Positions 8,417 to 46,515 of a stretch of 64,000 bases of DNA are shown here, piece by piece. The stretch lies in the NCBI RefSeq assembly GCF_058153355.1, contig NZ_CM177019.1, one strand, 5' to 3'. Under the pieces are notes generated by a model. The model saw only the letters and a list, made by a program, of their open reading frames with translations, made no database searches and had not been told where the DNA came from. A program made the position numbers and the translations under genes. Positions within the stretch are counted from its first letter, which is position 1. Every line of letters starts with the position of its first letter.

Positions 8417-9241
8417 ATGCAGCAGTTACAGAACATTATTGAAACCGCTTTTGAACGCCGTGCCGAGATCACGCCAGCCAATGCAGACACCGTTACCCGC
8501 GAAGCGGTAAATCAGGTGATCGCCCTGCTGGATTCCGGCGCACTGCGTGTAGCGGAAAAAATTGACGGTCAGTGGGTGACGCATCAGTGGTTGAAAAAAG
8601 CGGTGCTGCTCTCTTTCCGTATTAATGATAATCAGGTGATCGAAGGGGCAGAAAGCCGCTACTTCGACAAAGTGCCGATGAAATTCGCTAACTACGATGA
8701 AGCACGTTTCCAGAAAGAAGGCTTCCGCGTCGTGCCACCAGCGGCAGTACGTCAAGGTGCGTTTATCGCCCGTAACACCGTGCTGATGCCGTCTTACGTC
8801 AACATCGGCGCATATGTTGATGAAGGCACCATGGTTGATACCTGGGCGACCGTCGGTTCCTGTGCGCAGATTGGTAAAAATGTCCACCTTTCCGGTGGCG
8901 TAGGTATCGGCGGCGTGCTGGAGCCGCTGCAGGCTAATCCGACCATCATTGAAGATAACTGCTTCATCGGCGCGCGCTCTGAAGTGGTTGAAGGCGTAAT
9001 TGTCGAAGAAGGTTCCGTCATCTCTATGGGCGTATACATTGGTCAAAGCACCCGTATTTACGACCGTGAAACCGGCGAAATCCACTACGGTCGCGTTCCG
9101 GCGGGGTCTGTGGTTGTTTCAGGTAATCTGCCGTCGAAAGATGGCAAATACAGCCTCTACTGTGCGGTGATCGTTAAGAAAGTTGACGCGAAAACTCGCG
9201 GCAAAGTCGGCATTAACGAACTGCTACGCACCATCGACTAA
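8417..9241 (+). CDS. dapD: 2,3,4,5-tetrahydropyridine-2,6-dicarboxylate N-succinyltransferase
   Basis: 274-aa [51 protein letters not shown]..., hexapeptide-repeat transferase. Confidence 0.97.
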
Positions 9242-9553
9242 AAGTATGCACACGGGCAGCACGACGCTGCCCGATTGCTTTCTGGTTCAGAATAATTCGT
9301 CCTACTCATTCTTCTTCCCCTTTTTTAAATACTTTTTCATCTTGTTTCGGACTGTCATGTAATTCGCAAAACAAAGATAAATGTGCTAATCCATCCCATG
9401 GAATATCGCCACAATAAAGCAGGTAATTTTTTGATTTTTACGCCATGATAGAAGTCTGGAAGAAAAAGGCTTTCTGCGATCACAGTCGAGCCGGGCGGGC
9501 CAGGCCAAATGCTAAAATAAGCACAATTTACTGACTCATTTTGAGGTAACGCT

Positions 9554-28796: not shown

Positions 28797-28889
28797 GCTT
28801 TTTCTCCGCAATATTCAGGCGCAAAAGCCCGATTTTCTGTTCTTCTGTAACAAGACAGAAGAAGATATCTCTCAAATTTACTTTGGTCT

Positions 28890-31184
28890 TCATGAATACT
28901 TTTTCGTCCGTCGCGTCGGTGCGGTATTTGCCGGATCATCCGGCCAGACGTGTTTGGGATAACGCCCTTTCATTTCTTTTTGCACCTCGCGATACGCTCC
29001 TTTCCAGAAGGCACTCAAATCTCGTGTGATTTGCAGCGGCCTTTGGGCAGGAGAAAGCAACTCCAGCACCAGCGGCACACGCCCCTGGGCGATCGTCGGA
29101 TTGGTGGCCTCGCCAAACATCTCCTGCATTCTCACCGCCAGCGCGGGCGGGTTATCTTCATGGTAACGAATGGCGATCCGGCTTCCCGTCGGCACAGTGT
29201 AATGCGCAGGCAATTCACTATCCAGACGTTGCTGCATCCCCCAATCAAGTAATCCGCGTAGCGCCTGATAAATATCGAGTGATTTCAGGCCGCGTAGCGA
29301 ATGTACGCCTGCCATATGCGGCAGTAGCCACGTTTCCAGCGTCGCCAACAAACTTTCATCATCAACCGCTGGCCAGTCATATTCTGGCAACCACCTGGCG
29401 GCGCATAACAAACGCAAGCGTAGCTGTTCCGCTTCCGGCGTCCAGTTAAGCACGCTTAAGCCTTTATCACGAACGCCGTTAAGCATCGCCTGATGCAGCT
29501 CGTCTTCTGAAGGCTTCGCCAGCGGCTGCACTTTTACCGTCAGTTGACCAATTTGCAACCGACGCCAGGCTTTCAGCGTACCTTGCGCATCATCCCACTC
29601 CACGGTGTCCGATTGCTGCACCAGCTGCGGACAGCGTTGCACTAATTCATCGATATCGACCGGTAGCGCCAGTAAAATCCGCGCATCCGGCGAGGCGCTA
29701 CCCTGCAATAATAACGGTGCGATAAGCGAACTGTCTGCCTCACCGCCGCGTACGTTTAAGCGCTTTAACAGTTGCTGGCTACGTTGCTGCCAGGCAGGTT
29801 GATTGCGCGAAAACGCCACGCCCAGATCGATATTGCCCATCCGTGGTGGCTCTTCGAGAATAGCGGCAATTTTTGCAGCGGTAGCAGCTTCGTCGTCGCT
29901 CTTTACGCTCACCAGCATTGCCGCTAAACGCGGATCGTTACCCAGCGTCGCCATTTTCTGCCCTTTCGTGCTTAGCCGTTCACCGTCCATCGCCCCCAGC
30001 ATCCGCAACAGGCGTTTCGCGGCCTGTAAATTCACGGCTGGCGGTTGATCCAGCCAGCTCATCTGCGCCGGATCGCTGCATCCCCATTGCAGTAATTCCA
30101 TCAGCAAACCGGAAAGATCGCTTTGTAAGATCTCCGGTTCACTTTGTGCGGCAGCGCGTTCTGCTTGTTCTTTGGCGATTAAATGCAGGCAGATACCCGG
30201 CTCCAGACGCCCGGCACGCCCGGCACGCTGCGTCATCGACGCCTGACTGATTCGCTGAGTAATCAACCGCGTAAGTCCTGTACGCGGATCAAAACGCGCC
30301 ACCCTTTCCTGGGCGCAATCCACCACCAGACGAATACCTTCGATGGTTAAACTGGTTTCAGCAATATTGGTTGCCAGCACCACTTTGCGCATCCCTTCTG
30401 GTGCCGGAAGGATCGCTTTTCGCTGATCGTTCAGCGACAACGCGCCATACAGCGGGCAGAGCAACACATCACTACCGATGCGCGAAGCCAGTTGTTCCTG
30501 AACGCGCTGAATTTCTCCGACACCAGGTAAAAATAACAGTAATGAGCCGCTTTCCTGATGCAGCAATTCGGCGGTGGCAACCGCCACGGCTTCATCAAAA
30601 CGCTGATGAGCGAGCAGCGGTAAATATCGGCGTTCAACCGGAAATGAGCGCCCTTCTGAGATGACGACGGGCGCTTCTGGCAGCATCTGCTGCAAGCGGT
30701 CATTGTCCAGCGTAGCCGACATAATCAGTAGTTTAAGGTCATCACGCAGACCTTGTTGCACATCGAGTAACAGCGCCAACGCCAGATCCGCCTGCAAGCT
30801 GCGCTCATGAAACTCATCGAGGATCACCAATCCAACGCCGCTCAGTTCAGGGTCACGCTGGATCATGCGCGTCAACACGCCTTCGGTAACTACTTCCAGG
30901 CGAGTATTTGGCCCGACACAGTTTTGCGCGCGCATCCGGTAGCCTACCGTATCACCTGTTTTTTCGTTAAGCAGTTCCGCCAGTCGTTGCGCAACGTTAC
31001 GCGCCGCCAGGCGACGCGGCTCCAGCAGGATAATTTTTCCGTTAATGCCGGGATGCGCCAGCAGTTGCAGCGGCAGCCAGGTTGATTTCCCGGCCCCGGT
31101 CGGCGCACTTAATAACACCTGCGGTGCACCATCGAGGGCAGCAAGTAACTCAGGTAAGACGACGGCAACGGGCAACGACGACAC
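28890..31184 (-). CDS. hrpB: ATP-dependent RNA helicase HrpB (DEAH-box), about 45 codons shorter than my recollection of the K-12 protein
   Basis: ORF track frame 28890..31229; start placed at GTG (complement of 31182-31184) with GGAG 9 nt upstream, giving 764 aa VSSLPVAVVLPELLAALDGAPQVLLSAPTGAGKST...; ends RRTKKYS. Confidence 0.9.
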   Translation of the reverse strand: MSSLPVAVVLPELLAALDGAPQVLLSAPTGAGKSTWLPLQLLAHPGINGKIILLEPRRLAARNVAQRLAELLNEKTGDTVGYRMRAQNCVGPNTRLEVVTEGVLTRMIQRDPELSGVGLVILDEFHERSLQADLALALLLDVQQGLRDDLKLLIMSATLDNDRLQQMLPEAPVVISEGRSFPVERRYLPLLAHQRFDEAVAVATAELLHQESGSLLLFLPGVGEIQRVQEQLASRIGSDVLLCPLYGALSLNDQRKAILPAPEGMRKVVLATNIAETSLTIEGIRLVVDCAQERVARFDPRTGLTRLITQRISQASMTQRAGRAGRLEPGICLHLIAKEQAERAAAQSEPEILQSDLSGLLMELLQWGCSDPAQMSWLDQPPAVNLQAAKRLLRMLGAMDGERLSTKGQKMATLGNDPRLAAMLVSVKSDDEAATAAKIAAILEEPPRMGNIDLGVAFSRNQPAWQQRSQQLLKRLNVRGGEADSSLIAPLLLQGSASPDARILLALPVDIDELVQRCPQLVQQSDTVEWDDAQGTLKAWRRLQIGQLTVKVQPLAKPSEDELHQAMLNGVRDKGLSVLNWTPEAEQLRLRLLCAARWLPEYDWPAVDDESLLATLETWLLPHMAGVHSLRGLKSLDIYQALRGLLDWGMQQRLDSELPAHYTVPTGSRIAIRYHEDNPPALAVRMQEMFGEATNPTIAQGRVPLVLELLSPAQRPLQITRDLSAFWKGAYREVQKEMKGRYPKHVWPDDPANTAPTRRTKKYS

Positions 31185-31257
31185 AAAACGCTCCAGAGGG
31201 TTAACATTCTTCGCGCCACATTGTAGCATCGCGGTAATGCATAACCGAGTACCTCAC

Positions 31258-34162: not shown

Positions 34163-35560
34163 ATTTTTACCCGAGTCGCTAATTTTTGCCGCAAGGTGCT
34201 AAGCCGCGAGGAAAGCGAGGCTGAACAGGCAGTCGCCCGTCCACAGGTGACGGTGATCCCGCGTGAGCAGCATGCTATTTCCCGCAAAGATATCAGTGAA
34301 AATGCCCTGAAGGTAATGTACAGGCTCAATAAAGCGGGATACGAAGCCTGGCTGGTTGGCGGCGGCGTGCGCGACCTGTTACTTGGCAAAAAGCCGAAAG
34401 ATTTTGACGTGACTACTAACGCCACGCCAGAGCAAGTGCGCAAACTGTTCCGTAACTGCCGCCTGGTGGGTCGCCGTTTCCGTCTGGCTCATGTGATGTT
34501 TGGCCCGGAGATTATCGAAGTTGCGACCTTCCGGGGACATCACGAAGGTAACGTCAGCGACCGTACGACCTCCCAACGCGGGCAAAACGGCATGTTGCTG
34601 CGCGACAACATTTTCGGTTCCATCGAAGAAGACGCCCAGCGCCGCGATTTCACTATTAATAGTCTGTATTACAGCGTGGCGGATTTTACGGTCCGCGATT
34701 ACGTTGGTGGCATGAAGGATCTGAAAGACGGCGTTATCCGTCTGATTGGTAACCCGGAAACGCGCTACCGTGAAGATCCGGTACGTATGCTGCGCGCGGT
34801 TCGTTTTGCCGCCAAATTGGGCATGCGCATCAGCCCGGAAACCGCAGAACCGATCCCACGCCTGGCAACCCTGCTAAACGATATTCCTCCGGCGCGTTTG
34901 TTTGAAGAATCTCTGAAACTGTTGCAAGCGGGCTACGGTTACGAAACCTATAAACTGCTGTGTGAATACCATCTGTTCCAGCCGCTGTTCCCGACCATTA
35001 CCCGCTACTTTACGGAAAATGGTGACAGTCCAATGGAACGGATCATTGAGCTGGTGCTGAAGAATACTGACACGCGTATTCATAACGATATGCGCGTCAA
35101 CCCGGCGTTCCTGTTTGCCGCCATGTTCTGGTATCCCCTGCTGGAAACAGCACAGAAAATCGCGCAAGAGAGCGGCCTGACTTATCACGACGCTTTCGCG
35201 CTGGCAATGAACGATGTGTTAGACGAAGCCTGCCGTTCACTGGCTATCCCGAAACGGCTAACCACTTTAACCCGTGATATCTGGCAGTTACAGTTGCGCA
35301 TGTCCCGCCGTCAGGGTAAACGCGCATGGAAATTACTCGAACATCCGAAGTTCCGCGCAGCTTATGACCTGCTGGCACTGCGTGCTGAAGTAGAACGCAA
35401 CGCCGAGCTACAACGTCTGGCGAAATGGTGGGGTGAGTTCCAGGTTTCCGCGCCGCCAGACCAAAAAGGGATGCTTAACGAACTGGATGAAGAACCGTCA
35501 CCGCGTCGTCGTACTCGTCGCCCGCGCAGACGTGCGCCGCGCCGTGAGGGCACCGCATGA
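34163..35560 (+). CDS. pcnB: poly(A) polymerase I, with non-canonical AUU initiation codon
   Basis: ORF track frame starts at TTG 34142; the known PcnB N-terminus (M)[21 protein letters not shown] begins at the ATT codon 34163-34165, giving 465 aa; stop overlaps folK start. Confidence 0.9.
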
Positions 35561-36033
35561 CAGTGGCGTATATTGCTATCGGCAGCAATCTGGCCTCTCC
35601 GCTGGAGCAGGTCAATGCTGCCCTGAAGGCAATAGATGACATTCCTGAAAGCCGCATTCTTGCCGTTTCTTCGTTTTACCGCACCCCACCGCTGGGGCCG
35701 CAAGATCAACCCGATTACTTAAACGCAGCCGTGGCGCTGGAAACCTCTCTTACAGCTGAAGAACTCCTCAACCACACACAGCGTATTGAGTTGCAGCAAG
35801 GTCGCGTCCGCAAAGCTGAACGCTGGGGACCGCGCACGCTCGATCTTGATATCATGTTGTTTGGTAATCAGGTCATAAACACTGAGCGCCTGACCGTTCC
35901 GCACTATGATATGAAGAATCGTGGATTTATGTTGTGGCCGCTGTTTGAGATCGCGCCGGAACTGGTGTTTCCTGATGGTGAAACGCTGCAAGCAAGACTC
36001 ACTACTTTCCCTCCCTGCCCACAGCACTGGTAA
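35557..36033 (+). CDS. folK: 2-amino-4-hydroxy-6-hydroxymethyldihydropteridine pyrophosphokinase (HPPK)
   Basis: 158-aa [65 protein letters not shown]...; last ~17 residues ([17 protein letters not shown]) differ from the K-12 tail as I recall it. Confidence 0.93.
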
Positions 36034-36538: not shown

Positions 36539-37108
36539 ATGTTAAAAAAAAGTGCTATTGCTACGGCATTAGTGATGTTCACCACTTCTGCCTTCGCGCT
36601 GGATGGCGGTCAATTAGATTTCGCGGGTTTGGTGAGTGACAACACTTGCGTCTTGCACGTCAACGGTGGCGCCCAGGACGGTCAGATTACCCTGCAAACC
36701 GCCACAACCACTGAAGTTAATCAGGCCGGTGTTGTCCAACTTGCCAGCCCTGGCGCAAAACCGGAAGCCTTCTCTATTACGATCGATTGCTCGGACGATC
36801 CACAGGGCGCCTCTGCCAATCTGAGCATGGGTTCCGTGTTCTTCAGCAACAGTCAGGGCACTCTGAACAACGATCTCTCCATTAGCCAGGCGGCTACCGG
36901 GGTCGCGATTGCCATTCACTACCTTACCGATGCCACTACCTACGAACAGATGAGAGTTAACGACAGCACTGATGTTAAAAACCTGCTGTTTACCAACGGC
37001 AAAGCGGTTTACAACTTTAAAGCGTCATATGTAAAACAGGCAGCAACAGTTAACGCAACGGCAGGTTATGTCAAAACCAACGCCGCTTATACAGTGACTT
37101 ACCAGTAA
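36539..37108 (+). CDS. yadN: fimbrial major subunit (Yad fimbriae)
   Basis: ORF track frame 36494..37108 trimmed to ATG 36539, 189 aa MLKKSAIATALVMFTTSAFALDGGQLDFAGLV... with signal peptide and C-terminal YTVTYQ donor strand; allele divergent from K-12. Confidence 0.8.
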   Translation: MLKKSAIATALVMFTTSAFALDGGQLDFAGLVSDNTCVLHVNGGAQDGQITLQTATTTEVNQAGVVQLASPGAKPEAFSITIDCSDDPQGASANLSMGSVFFSNSQGTLNNDLSISQAATGVAIAIHYLTDATTYEQMRVNDSTDVKNLLFTNGKAVYNFKASYVKQAATVNATAGYVKTNAAYTVTYQ

Positions 37109-37165
37109 ATATCTGCGTCACCCAACAGCCCAAGGGCTGTTGGGTCACTCAATAAGGATAGTGTT

Positions 37166-37909
37166 ATGACCAGGATGTGTCAGTTTATTGTTTCCACTGC
37201 TTTCGTCGCATCGACAGCCGTTTTCAGCCTCACCGCGCAAGCAGATATTGTGCTTTCCGGTACGCGCATTATTTATAATGCCGACCAGAAAGACGTCACA
37301 TTGCGCATGGAAAACAAAGGTGCCCGCCCATTATTAGTTCAGACCTGGATTGATACCGGCAGCGAGAATGCCGACCCCAGCACATTGAAAGTGCCTTTTA
37401 CCGTGACGCCGCCGGTTTCCCGCGTTGATGGTAAAAAAGGCCAAACGGTTAAAATTGCCTGGAACGCCAGCCAGACCCTTCCAGCCGATCGCGAAAGCGT
37501 TTATTGGTTCAATGCGCTGGAAGTTCCCCCCAAGATGAACGATGCCGATGCCAAGGGAAAAAACATTCTGCAATTGGCTTTCCGTACCCGTATCAAGCTG
37601 TTCTATCGCCCAACCGGCCTGGCGGGTAACCCGGCTGATGCACCAAAACAGTTAACCTGGCGTCTCCAGTCTTCAGCCGGAAAAGTGGTGCTGCAGGCAA
37701 CAAACCCAACGCCTTATCACGTCTCATTCAGCAGTATTACCCTTGCCTCAGGCGGTAATAAATATACCGTGGAAAGCAGTATGGTCGAGCCCAAAAGCAG
37801 TGCGGAAATGGTGGTAAAAGGCGCTCCCCGTTCTGTGTCTGGCGCAACAGTTGAGTACTCAGCCATTAATGATTTTGGCGGTGGCATTGACGGCAAAGTC
37901 AAACTTTGA
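37166..37909 (+). CDS. yadV: periplasmic fimbrial chaperone (PapD-like)
   Basis: 247-aa ORF with signal peptide and chaperone motifs (IVLSGTRIIYNADQKDVTLRMENKGARPLLVQTW, LAFRTRIKLFYRP). Confidence 0.85.
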   Translation: MTRMCQFIVSTAFVASTAVFSLTAQADIVLSGTRIIYNADQKDVTLRMENKGARPLLVQTWIDTGSENADPSTLKVPFTVTPPVSRVDGKKGQTVKIAWNASQTLPADRESVYWFNALEVPPKMNDADAKGKNILQLAFRTRIKLFYRPTGLAGNPADAPKQLTWRLQSSAGKVVLQATNPTPYHVSFSSITLASGGNKYTVESSMVEPKSSAEMVVKGAPRSVSGATVEYSAINDFGGGIDGKVKL

Positions 37910-37941
37910 TGCCCACAGACGAGATCGGCTGAGATCGTACA

Positions 37942-40548
37942 ATGAAGATCCCCCACGATGGCAAAAGAATTCAACGATCGCCGCTCGCTTGCCTGATTGC
38001 GTGTAGCCTGCTGCCCTGCACACAAAATGTGTGGGGGGCAAACGAGACCGTTGAGTTTGATAACACGTTCCTGATGGGCGCAGGCGCCAGGGATATTGAT
38101 GTCAATCGTTATAGCAAAGGTAACGCAACATTACCGGGGCGCTATGACGTTAGCGTGTTTATTAATAACCAGGCCAGCGCCAATCTGAAAATCGAGTTTA
38201 TTGAATTAGACCCTGAACACGCTGCTCAGCCCTGTATCTCCACCAACACATTATTACAACTGCATATTCGCCAGCCAGAAAAGTTAGCGGATAACGCAAT
38301 TTTGCAAAAACGCGAAAACGCTGTGCAGGATTGCCTGAACGTAGAGGTTGCTATTCCGCAATCGAGCGTCGCTTACAATAGCAACGATCAGCGGCTTGAT
38401 ATCAGCATGCCGCAAATCTGGCTGCAGAGAACCTATGCCAACTATGTCGATCCGTCGCTGTGGGATGAAGGCATCAATGCCGCAATGCTCTCTTACACCC
38501 TTAACGGCTGGCGCAGTGAATCCCCCAATCAAACCACAGAAACCAGCTACGCCGGACTGATGGGCGGTATCAATTTATGGGGATGGCATTTTCGCTCACA
38601 TGGTAACTATTCGTGGGACAAAGAAGACGGCGGCAGTTTTGAATTTCAGGATAAATATCTGCAACGCGATATCGCCGCGCTCCGCTCTCAGCTGGTAATG
38701 GGTGAAACCAATACCACAGGAGAAACCTTCGACTCGGTGCCTATTCGCGGGCTGCGACTCTATAGCGAAAGCCGCATGTTGCCCCCTACGCTGGCGTCGT
38801 ATGCGCCCGTTATCCGTGGCGTGGCAAACTCTAACGCGAAAGTCACGATCACCCAAAACGGTTATAAAATTTATGAAACGACCGTGCCGCCAGGGCCATT
38901 CGCGATTGACGATCTCACCCCGGCAGGGTTCGGCGCCGATCTCGAGGTGACCATCACCGAATCGGACGGTTCAAAGCGTACGTTTAGTCAGGCTTATTCA
39001 TCGGTGATCCAGATGATGCGTCCCGGCGTGGGCAAATGGGATATCAGCGCCGGTGAGGTCAATAAAGAGGAACTCCAGGATAAACCGAACCTGCTGCAAG
39101 GAACCTACTATTACGGGTTGAGCAACACCTTCACCGGCTACACCGGCCTGCAAATGACCGATAACGGCTACTGGGCCGGTTTATTAGGGTTGGGGGTGAA
39201 TACATCGCTGGGCGCTTTCTCCTTCGATGTTACTCAGTCTCATGCCGAAATTCCTGACGATAAAACCTATAGTGGACAGAGTTACCGTGTTTCATGGAAC
39301 AAATATTTCGCGCCTACCGAAACCTCACTCAACATTGCCGCCTATCGCTACTCCACTGAAAACTATCTGGGGCTGAACGACGCGTTGACGCTGATTAATT
39401 CTGCCAACCATCCTGATGAAGAGGGCTATTCGGGGATTGTCAGTTATGCACGCATGAAAAATCAGTTCAGCGTTAGCATTAATCAAACGTTAAAAAGTGA
39501 TGAACGTGACTATGGCTCTTTCTATGTGAATGGCACATGGACAGATTACTGGGTAACCAACTCATCACAGAGCAGTTTTGCCTTTGGCTACAGCAATGCC
39601 TTTAACTGGGCGAGCTACAGCGTCAGCCTGCAACGGACATACGATGAAGACAATAAGAAGGATGACTCGATTTATCTGAGTGTGACCATTCCGCTTGATA
39701 AACTGCTTGGCCGCGATAGCCATCAGGGCGGGTTCAAAACCCTGAATACCAGCGTTAACAGCGATATGAAAGGTAGCTCGCAATATAACACCAATGCCTC
39801 GGGCTACAGCCAGGATAATCGCTGGAGTTACAGCGTGAATACCGCCTATAACGTGCAGAAAAACAGCGACAGCCTGAAAAGTATCAGCGGTTATACCAGC
39901 TATGAGTCGCCGTGGGGAACATTTTCAGGCTCAGCCTCCACCAGCAGCGATCGCTCACGTCAGTATGGGCTCAGCACCGATGGCGGTTTTGTACTCCACC
40001 GCCACGGTCTGACCTTCAGTAACGACAGTTTTACCGACTCTGACACGTTGGCGCTGATCAACGCCCCGGGTGCAAAAGGCGCGCGCATTAACTTTGGTAA
40101 CAGCACCATCGACCGTTTTGGCTACGGCGTGACCAGTTCACTGTCACCGTACCGGGAAAATACCGTCGCGCTCGATGTTAACGATCTGGATAACGACGTG
40201 GAGCTCAAAAACACCAGTAGCGTCGCCATTCCGCGCCAGGGTTCCGTCATTTTCAGCCACTTTGACACCGATACCGGGCGCTCCGCCATTCTCAATTTAC
40301 TGCGTAGCAACAATCAGCCCGTGCCGTTTGCTTCCGATATTACCGACGAAAAAGGGACCTCTATCGGGACCGTTGGCCAGGGCAGTCAGGCATTTGTACG
40401 CGGCATTGCCGACAGCGGTGAACTGACGGTCACCTGGTATGAGAAAAATAGTCGCCAGCAGTGCCGTATTCATTATCAGATACCGTCATCACCCACCATG
40501 ACCGGTAAAACTATCGTACTCAACGCCGTGCCATGCACCCAGCAATAA
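37942..40548 (+). CDS. htrE: fimbrial outer membrane usher protein
   Basis: 868-aa ORF; usher hallmarks (FDNTFLMGAGARDIDVNRYSKGN, RGLRLYSESRMLPPTLASYAPVIRGVANSNAKVTITQNGYKIYETTVPPGPFAIDDL). Confidence 0.88.
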   Translation: MKIPHDGKRIQRSPLACLIACSLLPCTQNVWGANETVEFDNTFLMGAGARDIDVNRYSKGNATLPGRYDVSVFINNQASANLKIEFIELDPEHAAQPCISTNTLLQLHIRQPEKLADNAILQKRENAVQDCLNVEVAIPQSSVAYNSNDQRLDISMPQIWLQRTYANYVDPSLWDEGINAAMLSYTLNGWRSESPNQTTETSYAGLMGGINLWGWHFRSHGNYSWDKEDGGSFEFQDKYLQRDIAALRSQLVMGETNTTGETFDSVPIRGLRLYSESRMLPPTLASYAPVIRGVANSNAKVTITQNGYKIYETTVPPGPFAIDDLTPAGFGADLEVTITESDGSKRTFSQAYSSVIQMMRPGVGKWDISAGEVNKEELQDKPNLLQGTYYYGLSNTFTGYTGLQMTDNGYWAGLLGLGVNTSLGAFSFDVTQSHAEIPDDKTYSGQSYRVSWNKYFAPTETSLNIAAYRYSTENYLGLNDALTLINSANHPDEEGYSGIVSYARMKNQFSVSINQTLKSDERDYGSFYVNGTWTDYWVTNSSQSSFAFGYSNAFNWASYSVSLQRTYDEDNKKDDSIYLSVTIPLDKLLGRDSHQGGFKTLNTSVNSDMKGSSQYNTNASGYSQDNRWSYSVNTAYNVQKNSDSLKSISGYTSYESPWGTFSGSASTSSDRSRQYGLSTDGGFVLHRHGLTFSNDSFTDSDTLALINAPGAKGARINFGNSTIDRFGYGVTSSLSPYRENTVALDVNDLDNDVELKNTSSVAIPRQGSVIFSHFDTDTGRSAILNLLRSNNQPVPFASDITDEKGTSIGTVGQGSQAFVRGIADSGELTVTWYEKNSRQQCRIHYQIPSSPTMTGKTIVLNAVPCTQQ

Positions 40549-40564
40549 TGTTCCAGGAGAGGAA

Positions 40565-41134
40565 ATGAGAGCTTTTTTACTACCGCCCCTGCTGCTGACG
40601 TCGCTTTGTCTGCGCCCCGCACTGGCAACCGATCTTTCGGTGAACTTTACCGCGACCATCAAAGAGACGACCTGTGCCATGACGCTCAACGCATTGAATG
40701 GGGCCAGTATCAGCGGTGATACCGCAACGAATAGCTATTATCTGGATCTGCCTGATATGGGCGTTTCGGACATTGTGAATAAATCGTCAATGTCAGAGGC
40801 TAATTTTAAAATCCTTCCCAGCAATTGTAATAACTATATTTCCGGCCTGTCGATGACTCTCAATGGCGCAGTCAGCAGCTATACAGATTCGTTAATCGGT
40901 AATGACCAGACCGTTTCCGGACATACCAACTATGTTGGTCTTGGTATTAAACGTATGAACACTGATGAAAACCTCCGCTTTAAACTCAACGGTAGCCAGC
41001 GAATCACCTGGACGAATGATGAAATAAGTAATGGATTAGATCTCACAGCCATGCTTCGTCAGACCACCACCGGGAATACGATCACCACAGGCCAATTCCA
41101 GGCCAAAGTAACTTTCGTCTTTACCTACCAATAG
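40565..41134 (+). CDS. yadM: fimbrial minor subunit
   Basis: 189-aa ORF with signal peptide and C-terminal VTFVFTYQ. Confidence 0.8.
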   Translation: MRAFLLPPLLLTSLCLRPALATDLSVNFTATIKETTCAMTLNALNGASISGDTATNSYYLDLPDMGVSDIVNKSSMSEANFKILPSNCNNYISGLSMTLNGAVSSYTDSLIGNDQTVSGHTNYVGLGIKRMNTDENLRFKLNGSQRITWTNDEISNGLDLTAMLRQTTTGNTITTGQFQAKVTFVFTYQ

Positions 41135-41145
41135 CAGGTTTGTTT

Positions 41146-41742
41146 ATGAATTATCACAATATAACCTTTGTCTTGCTGCTGTGCTTTGGATATATCTCCA
41201 TCGGCCACGCCGCCAGTAGCTCTATGGACGTTACGGTACGCGCTAAGGTTACTGCCAGTACCTGCACGGCGGAATTACGCAATGCGCAGGATCAGCAAGC
41301 CACCACCATCGCTATTGGCGATGTCTATCTCAACGAGCTTTCCGCTAAATCGAAATACCAAAACTTCAGCCTGGTGTTTTCAAACTGCGAAGGGTTAGCA
41401 AAGGATCAGGCAAAAGTTGTGCTTTCTGCACAGACGGGCTGCGATGGTGCTTCCAGTACCGGTGGCGGATACCGTAATGCACTGACGACAGCGGACGATG
41501 ATGCGGCAACCGGTGTTGCAGTTGAAGTGTGGACGACCAACCAGCCAGAAGGTCAGGGCAGCATTCAGCTTAATTGTAAAACCAAACCAACCAGTATTGT
41601 CGATTTAGCCACGGCTACAGGCTCGAATATTGTCCACTGGCCGCTCAGTGCCCGAATTGTTGTCGCATCGGATAATACCATCGCGGATGTCCGTGCAGGT
41701 CAATTCTCCACCAATGCTATCTTTTCTGTAACCTATGAGTAG
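41146..41742 (+). CDS. yadL: fimbrial minor subunit
   Basis: ATG at 41146 (track frame begins at TTG 41140); signal peptide, C-terminal AIFSVTYE. Confidence 0.8.
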   Translation: MNYHNITFVLLLCFGYISIGHAASSSMDVTVRAKVTASTCTAELRNAQDQQATTIAIGDVYLNELSAKSKYQNFSLVFSNCEGLAKDQAKVVLSAQTGCDGASSTGGGYRNALTTADDDAATGVAVEVWTTNQPEGQGSIQLNCKTKPTSIVDLATATGSNIVHWPLSARIVVASDNTIADVRAGQFSTNAIFSVTYE

Positions 41743-42315
41743 ATGATGATGAAAACAGTTATCTACATGATTGCGTTTTGGTTTTCTTACAACGCCATTG
41801 CAGCCAGTACCAATATTAATATGACTGCCAATATCATCAGCACCAGTTGCCGGGTCACGCTCGACAATAATGGAAATATTGATTTAGGCACAGTGGATTA
41901 TAGCTATCTGAATAATAATACCTCTGTCGATCGCGTCTATTCTGGCGGGCACCCCTTTTATATTACCGTCAGCGACTGCGCGCAGGTAGCGGGGAAAAAT
42001 CCGGCCCACCTGACCGTCAGCTTTACGCCTTTGGCAGGCACCCTTGCGCCAACCAACCTCCAGGTATTCGCCAACCAGCAGGTCAACGGTGCAAAAAATG
42101 TCGGCGTGGTTATTTTATCGACCGAGGACGCTCAGCATATTTTCAATGTGCTCGACACGCGTGGTCAACCGCAAAGTATTTACCCCGTGACGCCCGAAAC
42201 GATCGCTAACGCGACATACCACTTTTACGCTCGGATGCAAAAAATTGACCCTACACAAGCGGTAACCAGCGGCGTGGTAAAAGCGAGCGTATTTGTTGGG
42301 GTTTATTATGAATAA
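41743..42315 (+). CDS. yadK: fimbrial minor subunit
   Basis: 190-aa ORF MMMKTVIYMIAFWFSYNAIAA..., C-terminal VFVGVYYE; three consecutive ATG codons make the exact start ambiguous. Confidence 0.8.
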   Translation: MMMKTVIYMIAFWFSYNAIAASTNINMTANIISTSCRVTLDNNGNIDLGTVDYSYLNNNTSVDRVYSGGHPFYITVSDCAQVAGKNPAHLTVSFTPLAGTLAPTNLQVFANQQVNGAKNVGVVILSTEDAQHIFNVLDTRGQPQSIYPVTPETIANATYHFYARMQKIDPTQAVTSGVVKASVFVGVYYE

Positions 42316-42341
42316 TCTATATCACTCTCAAGGATGAAGAG

Positions 42342-43574
42342 ATGAACACGCAATTTTTTTCCCGGTCTAAACGGTGGTGTCGAACACTGCTGGTTCTGTT
42401 GTCCTTCTATTCAGGCTGCCTGCACTCTGCCAACACAATTATCGTCGGCAACAAAACCTATTCAGGCTCGACGGAAAGTAATTCCGGTCCACAGGGGGAT
42501 GGCAGCGCAACGGCAACGTTCAGCACAGGAGCAAACCAGATAGTGATCCCAACCTCCGCGGGGCTACAAAGTAGCAACATCAGGCTCCAGTTGGGCTGGG
42601 TGGATACGGGTTCATTAGGCAATGCCCTGATTTACTGTGGAGCTGGTGGAATGGGAACGCCTTTAACCCTGGAGAGCCATTTCGTTGATGCTCTGGTGAG
42701 TGCAGATGGCCACAAGCTCTTTAAAACCAATGTGCAGGGTCTCTACTTCAGGATGCACATGTACAGTGTAAGCTCATTCAAAACAACATCCAGCAGCGAT
42801 ATCTATATCGGTGACCCCCCCCAACAAACACTGACCTTAACGCCCGAGAATTCCGTATGCGTCGCCGATCTGGGGAAATACACAGCCATAGGCGGTCTGG
42901 TCAGTAAAATTGATATTGAGTTTTATAATGATGGAACCTTCAATCCCAATACGACAGGTAGCATCGCTTTACTGAGCAACAAGGGATATCACTATTCAGT
43001 GACAAATGCAGCGCCTGGTGGTGCATTGACCTCGCACTATATTTATCAGACGTTCAATATGGGTAATGTGACGCTTAGCTCGCCTACCTGTACCTCAGCG
43101 GTCGTTTCGGGGAATACAGTTAAGGGAGATACCGTCAGTCTCGGTGAATATAACCCCAAAGATATCCTTGATGGCGTTGACGGCATCCCTTTTGGTATAG
43201 CACTAAAGAACTGTTACCGGGTCACCAATATCGAGGTCAAAATGACTACCGGCGCCCCTGCAATGTCGGCTGCGTTATTGGGTAATTCGTTAACCGCCGA
43301 GGCCAATGCCGCCAACGGCGTAGGCGTGGAGATAAAAGGAAAATCGAACTCACATTATGCCGAGGTTGTTCTTCACCCTAATGACACCCATTCTGTTTAT
43401 AAAGCCTATGTCGATACAGCTGACACGTCGAATGGCATTATTGGTTCAGGCACATCGGGAACCGCAGCAAATCAAACGCTAAATTTTGTTGCCACCCTCA
43501 AACAAGACAACAATCAACAAATCAGAGGCGGGGATTTCAAAGCGACCGCCGTTTTCTCTATCACCTACCCATGA
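42342..43574 (+). CDS. yadC: fimbrial tip adhesin-like protein
   Basis: 410-aa ORF, signal peptide, two-domain size typical of tip adhesins, C-terminal AVFSITYP pilin fold; last gene of operon. Confidence 0.8.
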   Translation: MNTQFFSRSKRWCRTLLVLLSFYSGCLHSANTIIVGNKTYSGSTESNSGPQGDGSATATFSTGANQIVIPTSAGLQSSNIRLQLGWVDTGSLGNALIYCGAGGMGTPLTLESHFVDALVSADGHKLFKTNVQGLYFRMHMYSVSSFKTTSSSDIYIGDPPQQTLTLTPENSVCVADLGKYTAIGGLVSKIDIEFYNDGTFNPNTTGSIALLSNKGYHYSVTNAAPGGALTSHYIYQTFNMGNVTLSSPTCTSAVVSGNTVKGDTVSLGEYNPKDILDGVDGIPFGIALKNCYRVTNIEVKMTTGAPAMSAALLGNSLTAEANAANGVGVEIKGKSNSHYAEVVLHPNDTHSVYKAYVDTADTSNGIIGSGTSGTAANQTLNFVATLKQDNNQQIRGGDFKATAVFSITYP

Positions 43575-45570: not shown

Positions 45571-46515
45571 TTAGTTAATTAGCTTATCAATCTCAGCAAG
45601 AGGTAAATTTGCCATCTCTGCAACGTCTTCCCGAGACATTCCTTTACTCAGAAGACGCAGGGCGAATTCTTGCCTTTCCTCCTGTCTTCCCAGCTGAATC
45701 CCCTTCTCAATCCCCTTCTCAATCCCCTTCTCAATCCCCTTCTCAATTCCCTTCTCAATTCCCTTCTCTTCAAACCACTGCGCCAACGTCATCATAGACT
45801 CCCCTCCCGTTTCCCTGTCTCTCACCACACCATAAAACAAATCCGCTTGTTCAGTATGACCGCGTTGCAGCATATAGTTTTGCATGGCAACTAACTGACT
45901 TCCGCTAGTGTACCCTTCGTCAATCAGCGTGACCAGTTGCTCCAGCAATAACATTAAGTCGCGCTGGCGAATATGTTTTTGCAACAGTTCGAGAATCGCA
46001 ATCCGCCGATGTTGCATGATTTCGTCATCCGGTGTGATAGTGATATCCACCAGCGGGAAAGGACTGTTATAGACGCGTCGCGCCAGCTCCGGCGAGTAAA
46101 ACATATCAAACCAGCACATTGAGAGTGGATAAGGCGTGGCCTCGCCCTGATAAAACAAAATCGGCACCACCAGCGGCAGCTTATCGTGGTCAGCCTCCAG
46201 ATGCCGGTGCATGGCGGCAATAGAATAACGCATCATACGAAACGCCATTTTTTTGTCCGGCTTGCTTTGGTGTTCAATCACAACATGTAGATAGCCCGTA
46301 TTACCCTGCATTTGCACGGAATAGAGCACGTCAGTGCTGTGCCCTTTCAGGCTTTCTTCAATAAAACTCCCCGACTCAAGATGCAGCGTGTCGAGGTCAC
46401 ACAGTTCGCGTAGCTCCGCTGGCAAATGGATATCCAGAAAGTCGCGAGCCGTTTCCACGTGCATTAAAAATTGTTTAAACACCGCATCATGCGGTGTGGT
46501 ACTCGGTGCATCCAT
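45571..46515 (-). CDS. rpnC: recombination-promoting nuclease Rpn family (YhgA-like, PD-(D/E)XK transposase_31)
   Basis: 314-aa ORF MDAPSTTPHDAVFKQFLMHVETARDFLDIHLPAELRELCDLDTLHLESGSFIEESLKGHSTDVLYSVQMQ...; position between panC and panD as for yadD/rpnC; carries an (EKGI)6 repeat. Confidence 0.88.
   Translation of the reverse strand: MDAPSTTPHDAVFKQFLMHVETARDFLDIHLPAELRELCDLDTLHLESGSFIEESLKGHSTDVLYSVQMQGNTGYLHVVIEHQSKPDKKMAFRMMRYSIAAMHRHLEADHDKLPLVVPILFYQGEATPYPLSMCWFDMFYSPELARRVYNSPFPLVDITITPDDEIMQHRRIAILELLQKHIRQRDLMLLLEQLVTLIDEGYTSGSQLVAMQNYMLQRGHTEQADLFYGVVRDRETGGESMMTLAQWFEEKGIEKGIEKGIEKGIEKGIEKGIQLGRQEERQEFALRLLSKGMSREDVAEMANLPLAEIDKLIN
45697..45768 (-). repeat. in-frame 12-bp tandem repeat (6 copies) inside rpnC
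   Basis: aatccccttctc x4 then aattcccttctc x2 on plus strand, encoding EKGIEKGIEKGIEKGIEKGIEKGI on the minus strand. Confidence 0.95.

Follow-up and report, generated by a model that had tools for sequence, protein, structure and literature searches.

The window analysed here is a 64,000-nucleotide stretch of contig NZ_CM177019.1 (NCBI RefSeq assembly GCF_058153355.1), which is collinear with E. coli K-12 from dxr to yacH at 91–98% DNA identity. On its minus strand, between thpR and mrcB as in K-12, lies a deletion allele of hrpB (28890..31184), with a GTG start at 31184, a stop at 28890 and 764 codons plus the stop. The surrounding open reading frame (28890..31229, minus strand; its translation includes ...GGEADSSLIAPLLLQGSASPDARILL...) offers an alternative upstream ATG at 31229, which would give a 779-aa protein; this start was rejected, its sequence being absent from the protein collection. 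The initial annotation had fixed the GTG by the spacer to thpR. In the window, the thpR ATG (31258) and the hrpB GTG (31184) enclose a divergent intergenic spacer of 73 bp (31185..31257, no strand assigned) that aligns ungapped to undeleted alleles by blastn, and the K-12 MG1655 starts (thpR 162031, hrpB 162105) agree in giving the same 73 bp. Downstream, the hrpB-mrcB intergenic region (28797–28889) is 93 bp both here and in the closest alleles, as against 195 bp in K-12, where the ~100 extra bases are possibly a REP-type element.

The exact 764-aa protein is in GenBank (EGO8350420.1 / HFG3507804.1), annotated as 'ATP-dependent helicase HrpB [Escherichia coli]'. In K-12, hrpB is 2430 bp or 809 codons, and crystallised HrpB (PDB 6HEG chain A, 6heg_A) is likewise 809 aa, so the lengths of 764 and 809 aa in the initial annotation were right. 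An N-terminal cause of the difference was ruled out, as the GTG start agrees with both K-12 and the GenBank protein.

Judged by NCBIfam cut-offs, motifs, C-terminal domains and synteny, the window protein is HrpB, the one exception being the lack of a complete OB fold. It scores 1390.2 bits against the HrpB equivalog NF008662 (curated cut-off 1053) and 1169.2 bits against the equivalog TIGR01970 (curated cut-off 546), each profile matching as two stretches with a break after profile position ~495–499. The RecA1/RecA2 NTPase core (residues ~1–360; 30105..31184, minus strand; Pfam DEAD 17–164, Helicase_C 206–327) is intact, its translation carries motif I (GAGKS), motif II (DEFH) and motif VI (QRAGRAGR), and its pLDDT is mostly above 90 in an AlphaFold2 model of the variant. 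Also intact is the HrpB-specific C-terminal extension (28932..29624, minus strand), with CON_HrpB at variant residues 521–555 (PF24473, E = 4.5e-14) and HrpB_C at 619–751 (PF08482, E = 4.6e-54), both with full model coverage and scores as for K-12 HrpB. The deletion described below leaves the NTPase core, the WH/HB domains, the connector and the C-terminal domain unaffected.

A 135-bp in-frame deletion in hrpB

Deterministic alignment confirmed that the length difference is an internal, in-frame loss of 45 codons. A phmmer comparison with 6HEG gave a two-part match (query 1–497 to chain 1–497, query 486–764 to chain 531–809), and tblastn of K-12 HrpB against the window gave 45 gaps and zero stop codons. 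The MAFFT DNA alignment of the window, K-12 and NZ_CP169399 has one gap only, exactly 135 bp long (gene columns 1462–1596), with no further hrpB indels relative to K-12 and NZ_CP169399. The residues missing from the window HrpB are K-12 487–531 (equivalently 493–537). The initial annotation had placed an in-frame deletion of ~135 bp (45 codons) here, relative to K-12, and had described the missing segment as flanked by a duplicated LIAPLL motif. Both points hold: the loss is exactly 135 bp by protein and by DNA alignment, and LIAPLL occurs twice in K-12 HrpB, at 487–492 and 532–537. Pairwise alignment with K-12 hrpB showed neither a 764-aa reference nor a difference at the N-terminus.

The junction (29712..29723, minus strand; codons I488-A-P-L491 in the MAFFT alignment) is the sole retained copy of a 12-bp repeat, ATCGCACCGTTA. 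In NZ_CP169399, the segment deleted from the window is bounded by two exact ATCGCACCGTTA copies that lie 135 bp apart, with 123 bp of unique DNA between them. The short direct repeats proposed earlier thus exist, as 12 exact bp in the nearest alleles that encode the LIAPLL duplicate. The repeat is exact in 6/9 full-length hrpB alleles examined; in K-12, EC42405 and R32_14_1F it is interrupted by two synonymous differences, leaving a longest exact run of 5 bp. As a 46-nt probe from the undeleted allele found a perfect first copy in only 16/5,426 complete E. coli genomes, the allele class of this lineage is the predisposed one.

Slipped mispairing or microhomology-mediated recombination between short direct repeats is an established mechanism of deletion, and deletions of this kind form a classical class, described for E. 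coli lacI. The hrpB junction has the anatomy of a microhomology deletion, with a repeat at both ends, one copy left and a deletion as long as the spacing of the repeats. From this anatomy alone, we infer that slippage probably gave rise to the deletion: the 12-bp repeats, 135 bp apart, would have recombined by a slipped-strand or microhomology-mediated route of the RecA-independent type, the repeats being perfect only in the rare allele class that this lineage carries. The deleted DNA and its flanks, folded as a single strand, had no special hairpin potential (-30.1 kcal/mol, z = +0.97) and gave no sign of hairpin-promoted slippage. The locus would be an example of synonymous drift creating a perfect 12-bp microhomology and exposing an allele to deletion.

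Occurrence of the allele and its genomic background

The exact 764-aa protein was found on five contigs, three from Logan (SRR8656992, SRR28786219, SRR31441161) and two from GenBank (GCA_043012465.1, GCA_015332025.1), which were built by at least two assembly pipelines. Over hrpB ±50 bp, all five carrier contigs are identical to the window. Across 22,295 bp, 3 SNPs (at window 23674, 20699 and 19024) separate the SRR8656992 locus from the window; the locus therefore does not stem from the same assembly and constitutes independent data from a near-identical isolate. The initial annotation had left three options, namely a natural allele, a functional variant or an assembly collapse, of which the natural allele stands and the collapse all but falls, since the identical allele recurs in three SRA runs and two GenBank assemblies. 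A junction that falls on a repeated 12-mer is what a collapse between repeats would produce, but an assembly or sequencing artefact is nevertheless extremely improbable, given that five contigs share the identical junction, that one of them carries 3 SNPs elsewhere relative to the window and so represents independent data, and that a 12-bp repeat, its copies kept apart by 123 unique bp, is too short to collapse an assembly. To our knowledge, 12 bp is shorter than any commonly used assembler k-mer. Recovery of the allele in three separate sequencing runs also indicates that it is not strongly deleterious.

Outside these carriers, a 46-nt junction probe had 0 matches in 5,426 complete E. coli genomes; the control 46-nt probe for the undeleted allele found its 16 target genomes at E = 6e-15. 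An exact scan for the 29-mer junction TCGCTTATCGCACCGTTATTATTGCAGGG found it absent from all 100,044 GTDB species-representative genomes, which therefore do not include the genome of the window. A search with the full gene gave an hrpB match covering 80% or more of the query in 5,424/5,426 complete E. coli genomes, and among the matches listed every one spans 2475 bp in two pieces. When a 75-aa junction peptide was used for a homologue search, all hits were short fragments (130 aa or less) and even the 764-aa protein itself was missed, so that the search is uninformative on recurrence. We also reconstructed five ancestors (the window protein plus the 45-aa segment, in five allele types), none of which occurs in a collection of 15 billion proteins; no otherwise identical undeleted sibling was thus found against which to date the deletion. 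Most likely, the allele is confined to one near-identical, rarely sampled clone and reflects a recent, lineage-specific deletion. A full-text literature search returned no paper whose title or abstract concerned such an hrpB allele. The window protein is a structural variant of a known protein that was not previously described, its sequence being already deposited in GenBank, and deletion within the OB fold of hrpB is a real but ordinary kind of lesion.

The direction of the change was read from an HrpB family alignment of 84 sequences, 82 of them from outside E. coli and 40–53% identical to K-12 HrpB. The deleted segment is retained, almost gap-free, in 82/82 of these diverse homologues, and the 809-aa state is therefore ancestral. 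All 82 homologues share G515 within the segment, and A495, R499 and R504 are each at least 90% conserved across them; mean conservation is 0.55, as against 0.40–0.47 in the neighbouring accessory regions. The duplicated LIAPLL of the 809-aa form superficially hints at a duplication, and hence at an ancestral 764-aa form that was extended to 809 aa in other E. coli, through an insertion or a duplication. We give this history practically no credence: all 82 homologues, at 40–54% identity, contain the segment essentially ungapped and with its conserved residues, the segment forms β1–β3 of a canonical OB fold, and among the 5,426 complete E. coli genomes 5,424 match hrpB over at least 80% while the junction occurs in none.

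For two separate parts of the window, the closest complete genomes were 2020CK-00188, N96, WL297, 2013C-4282, 2017-02-2CC, EC42405 and the MFDS strains, at 97.6–98.7% identity. Since the same few genomes are closest at only this level, the window represents a divergent, rarely sampled E. coli lineage. Even with the deletion set aside, few backbone stretches of the window have diverged from K-12 as far as hrpB (92.6% DNA identity, dS ~0.30), the flanking stretches that include mrcB, fhuA and thpR/sfsA being 94–96% identical. Only 18/5,424 complete genomes fall in the band of 95–99% identity to the window hrpB, pointing to two deeply separated classes of hrpB allele in E. coli.

By tblastn, the majority of the other K-12 genes in the window have their full length and show neither indels nor stops. 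General gene decay was rejected on this basis, the hrpB lesion being isolated. The exceptions to the intact K-12 gene set are yaeI, the yad fimbrial operon, rpnC and folK. The gene yaeI (b0164, 813 bp in K-12) is missing, with ~315 bp of AT-rich intergenic DNA between dapD and yaeH in its place (9239–9553), and tblastn with K-12 YaeI found no match anywhere in the window. The yadN-yadV-htrE-yadMLKC chaperone-usher fimbrial operon (36551–43568) is present and intact, its proteins being 37–60% identical to K-12 with no megablast match; it is a deeply divergent allele set inside a backbone that is otherwise 94–98% identical. For rpnC (yadD; 45574–46515), the product is 91% identical to K-12 RpnC with 16 gap positions and an open frame. 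FolK (35557–36006) aligns to K-12 residues 1–150 of 159 only and differs at the C-terminus; the folK gene called on a sister contig (L003) encodes 158 aa.

Loss of most of the OB fold and probable consequences for HrpB

Domain limits were taken from Pfam and from an AlphaFold2 model of K-12 HrpB (mean pLDDT 94.7). Pfam has no model over the deleted part, with CON_HrpB beginning at K-12 residue 566 and HrpB_C at 664. The wild-type and variant AlphaFold2 models both match PDB 6EUD and 6HEG. The K-12 model contains a helix at 485–495, β1 at 500–503, β2 at 509–512, β3 at 517–519, a helix at 525–528, β4 at 531–539 and β5 at 546–553, with pLDDT 93–97 over the helix 485–495, β1–β3 and β4–β5. The deletion removes β1–β3 together with the helix on either side, the one that precedes the OB fold and the short one after β3. 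What is left is the β4–β5 hairpin, which constitutes an OB-fold remnant at variant residues 486–508 (29661..29729, minus strand; limits from the AlphaFold2 models). The initial annotation's view that part of the OB-fold region had been removed agrees with the wild-type model, whose elements at 485–528 lie inside or straddle the deleted span.

The variant model has a mean pLDDT of 92.6 and a pTM of 0.79, vs 0.84 for the wild type. It is confident except at residues 481–520, where successive 10-residue pLDDT means are 66, 63, 77 and 81 and the β4–β5 remnant falls to 63–77, and its OB region contains only two three-residue strands (492–494 and 501–503). With β1–β3 deleted, the window protein lacks the complete five-stranded OB fold that follows the helical bundle in DEAH/RHA proteins.

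In DEAH/RHA proteins, the OB fold is a platform for RNA and for G-patch and other cofactors, with loops L1-2 and L4-5 binding nucleic acid, and Pfa1 fails to activate OB-less Prp43 (PMC4322301). In P. aeruginosa HrpB, the OB peptide 559–578 responds specifically to structured MS2 RNA; truncations that end inside the accessory domains (1–390, 1–500, 1–539 and 1–589) are insoluble, and the bare RecA core (HrpB1-365) is soluble and ATPase-active and gains stimulation by poly(U) (PMC7237152). HrpB of E. coli hydrolyses NTPs in an RNA-dependent manner but, in isolation, has no helicase activity (PMC8325345). Knockouts of hrpB in E. coli and P. aeruginosa have no growth, stress, motility, biofilm or virulence phenotype (PMC7237152).

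Without β1–β3, the five-stranded OB barrel, which shuts the RNA tunnel and to which RNA and cofactors bind, could not form. The 764-aa HrpB would then misfold, be unstable, or remain an NTPase whose handling of RNA is crippled or changed, and the allele would be a hypomorph or null that still resembles an intact gene. Such a lesion would be near-neutral and carried clonally, being tolerated because E. coli can dispense with hrpB in every condition tested. By analogy and from the models, the 764-aa HrpB is most likely destabilised or defective in RNA handling. Overall, we consider it likely that the window carries a genuine, recent, microhomology-mediated 135-bp in-frame deletion that leaves HrpB impaired or inactive and is tolerated since hrpB is dispensable. 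Annotation pipelines call the protein a normal HrpB though most of its OB fold is gone and it is probably impaired.

Pointing against a loss of function, the frame, start codon, NTPase motifs and C-terminal domain are all intact. There is no stop or frameshift that would mark a pseudogene, and the five carriers are identical in hrpB and hence show no post-deletion divergence. The dN/dS relative to the nearest allele is low (0.12), nearly all of that divergence predating the deletion. An OB-less HrpB could accordingly be a stable, RNA-dependent NTPase with altered RNA preference that is maintained or even selected in the clone, as might be argued from the intact frame, start, motifs, CON_HrpB and HrpB_C, from the confident model outside residues 481–520, from the solubility and activity of P. 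aeruginosa HrpB1-365 with all accessory domains gone (PMC7237152), and from the presence of the allele in three different SRA runs. We regard such a protein as unlikely, however, considering that partial accessory-domain truncations of P. aeruginosa HrpB are insoluble (PMC7237152), that an invariant glycine and three near-invariant residues are lost and 0/82 homologues are without the segment, that the allele is restricted to one near-identical clone, and that no selective advantage is known for any E. coli hrpB change. Compared with an impaired HrpB, a functional variant is the less likely reading.

The stronger form, in which a naturally inherited HrpB works without a complete OB fold and has been selected in this clone, is quite improbable. 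If it were true, a modified RNA-dependent NTPase function would need no more than the β4–β5 hairpin together with the HrpB-specific connector and C-terminal domain, and nature would have carried out a domain dissection of a helicase. If the protein is stable, it would also provide a natural OB-deletion construct for the study of HrpB.

Comparison with known systems

As a DNA lesion, the hrpB deletion shares its end repeats, its retained copy and a length equal to the repeat spacing with classical short-direct-repeat deletions. It has no unusual trait among them, a 12-bp repeat and a 135-bp span being typical.

The closest full-length allele is that of NZ_CP169399 (strain MFDS1022581, WP_001363864.1), at 98.3% DNA identity and 10 amino-acid differences. 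It has the perfect 12-bp repeat at both ends with the 135 bp still in place, and so corresponds to the pre-deletion state. The orthologue in E. coli K-12 (b0148, NP_414690.4; PDB 6HEG / 6EUD), a DEAH/RHA-type RNA-dependent NTPase, occupies the same thpR-hrpB-mrcB position and is 96% identical over the 764 shared residues, with the core, WH/HB, CON_HrpB and HrpB_C alike. Relative to it, the window protein is without the pre-OB helix, OB β1–β3 and the short helix, and the two genes, 92.6% identical in DNA, belong to divergent allele classes.

The best experimental proxies are the P. aeruginosa HrpB truncations (Hausmann et al. 2020, PMC7237152) and OB-less Prp43 (PMC4322301), in which the OB fold is likewise lost or disrupted. 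Those engineered proteins, however, are C-terminal truncations from which everything downstream is gone too, whereas in the window allele the loss is limited to the N-terminal three-fifths of the OB fold, with connector and C-terminal domain still present.
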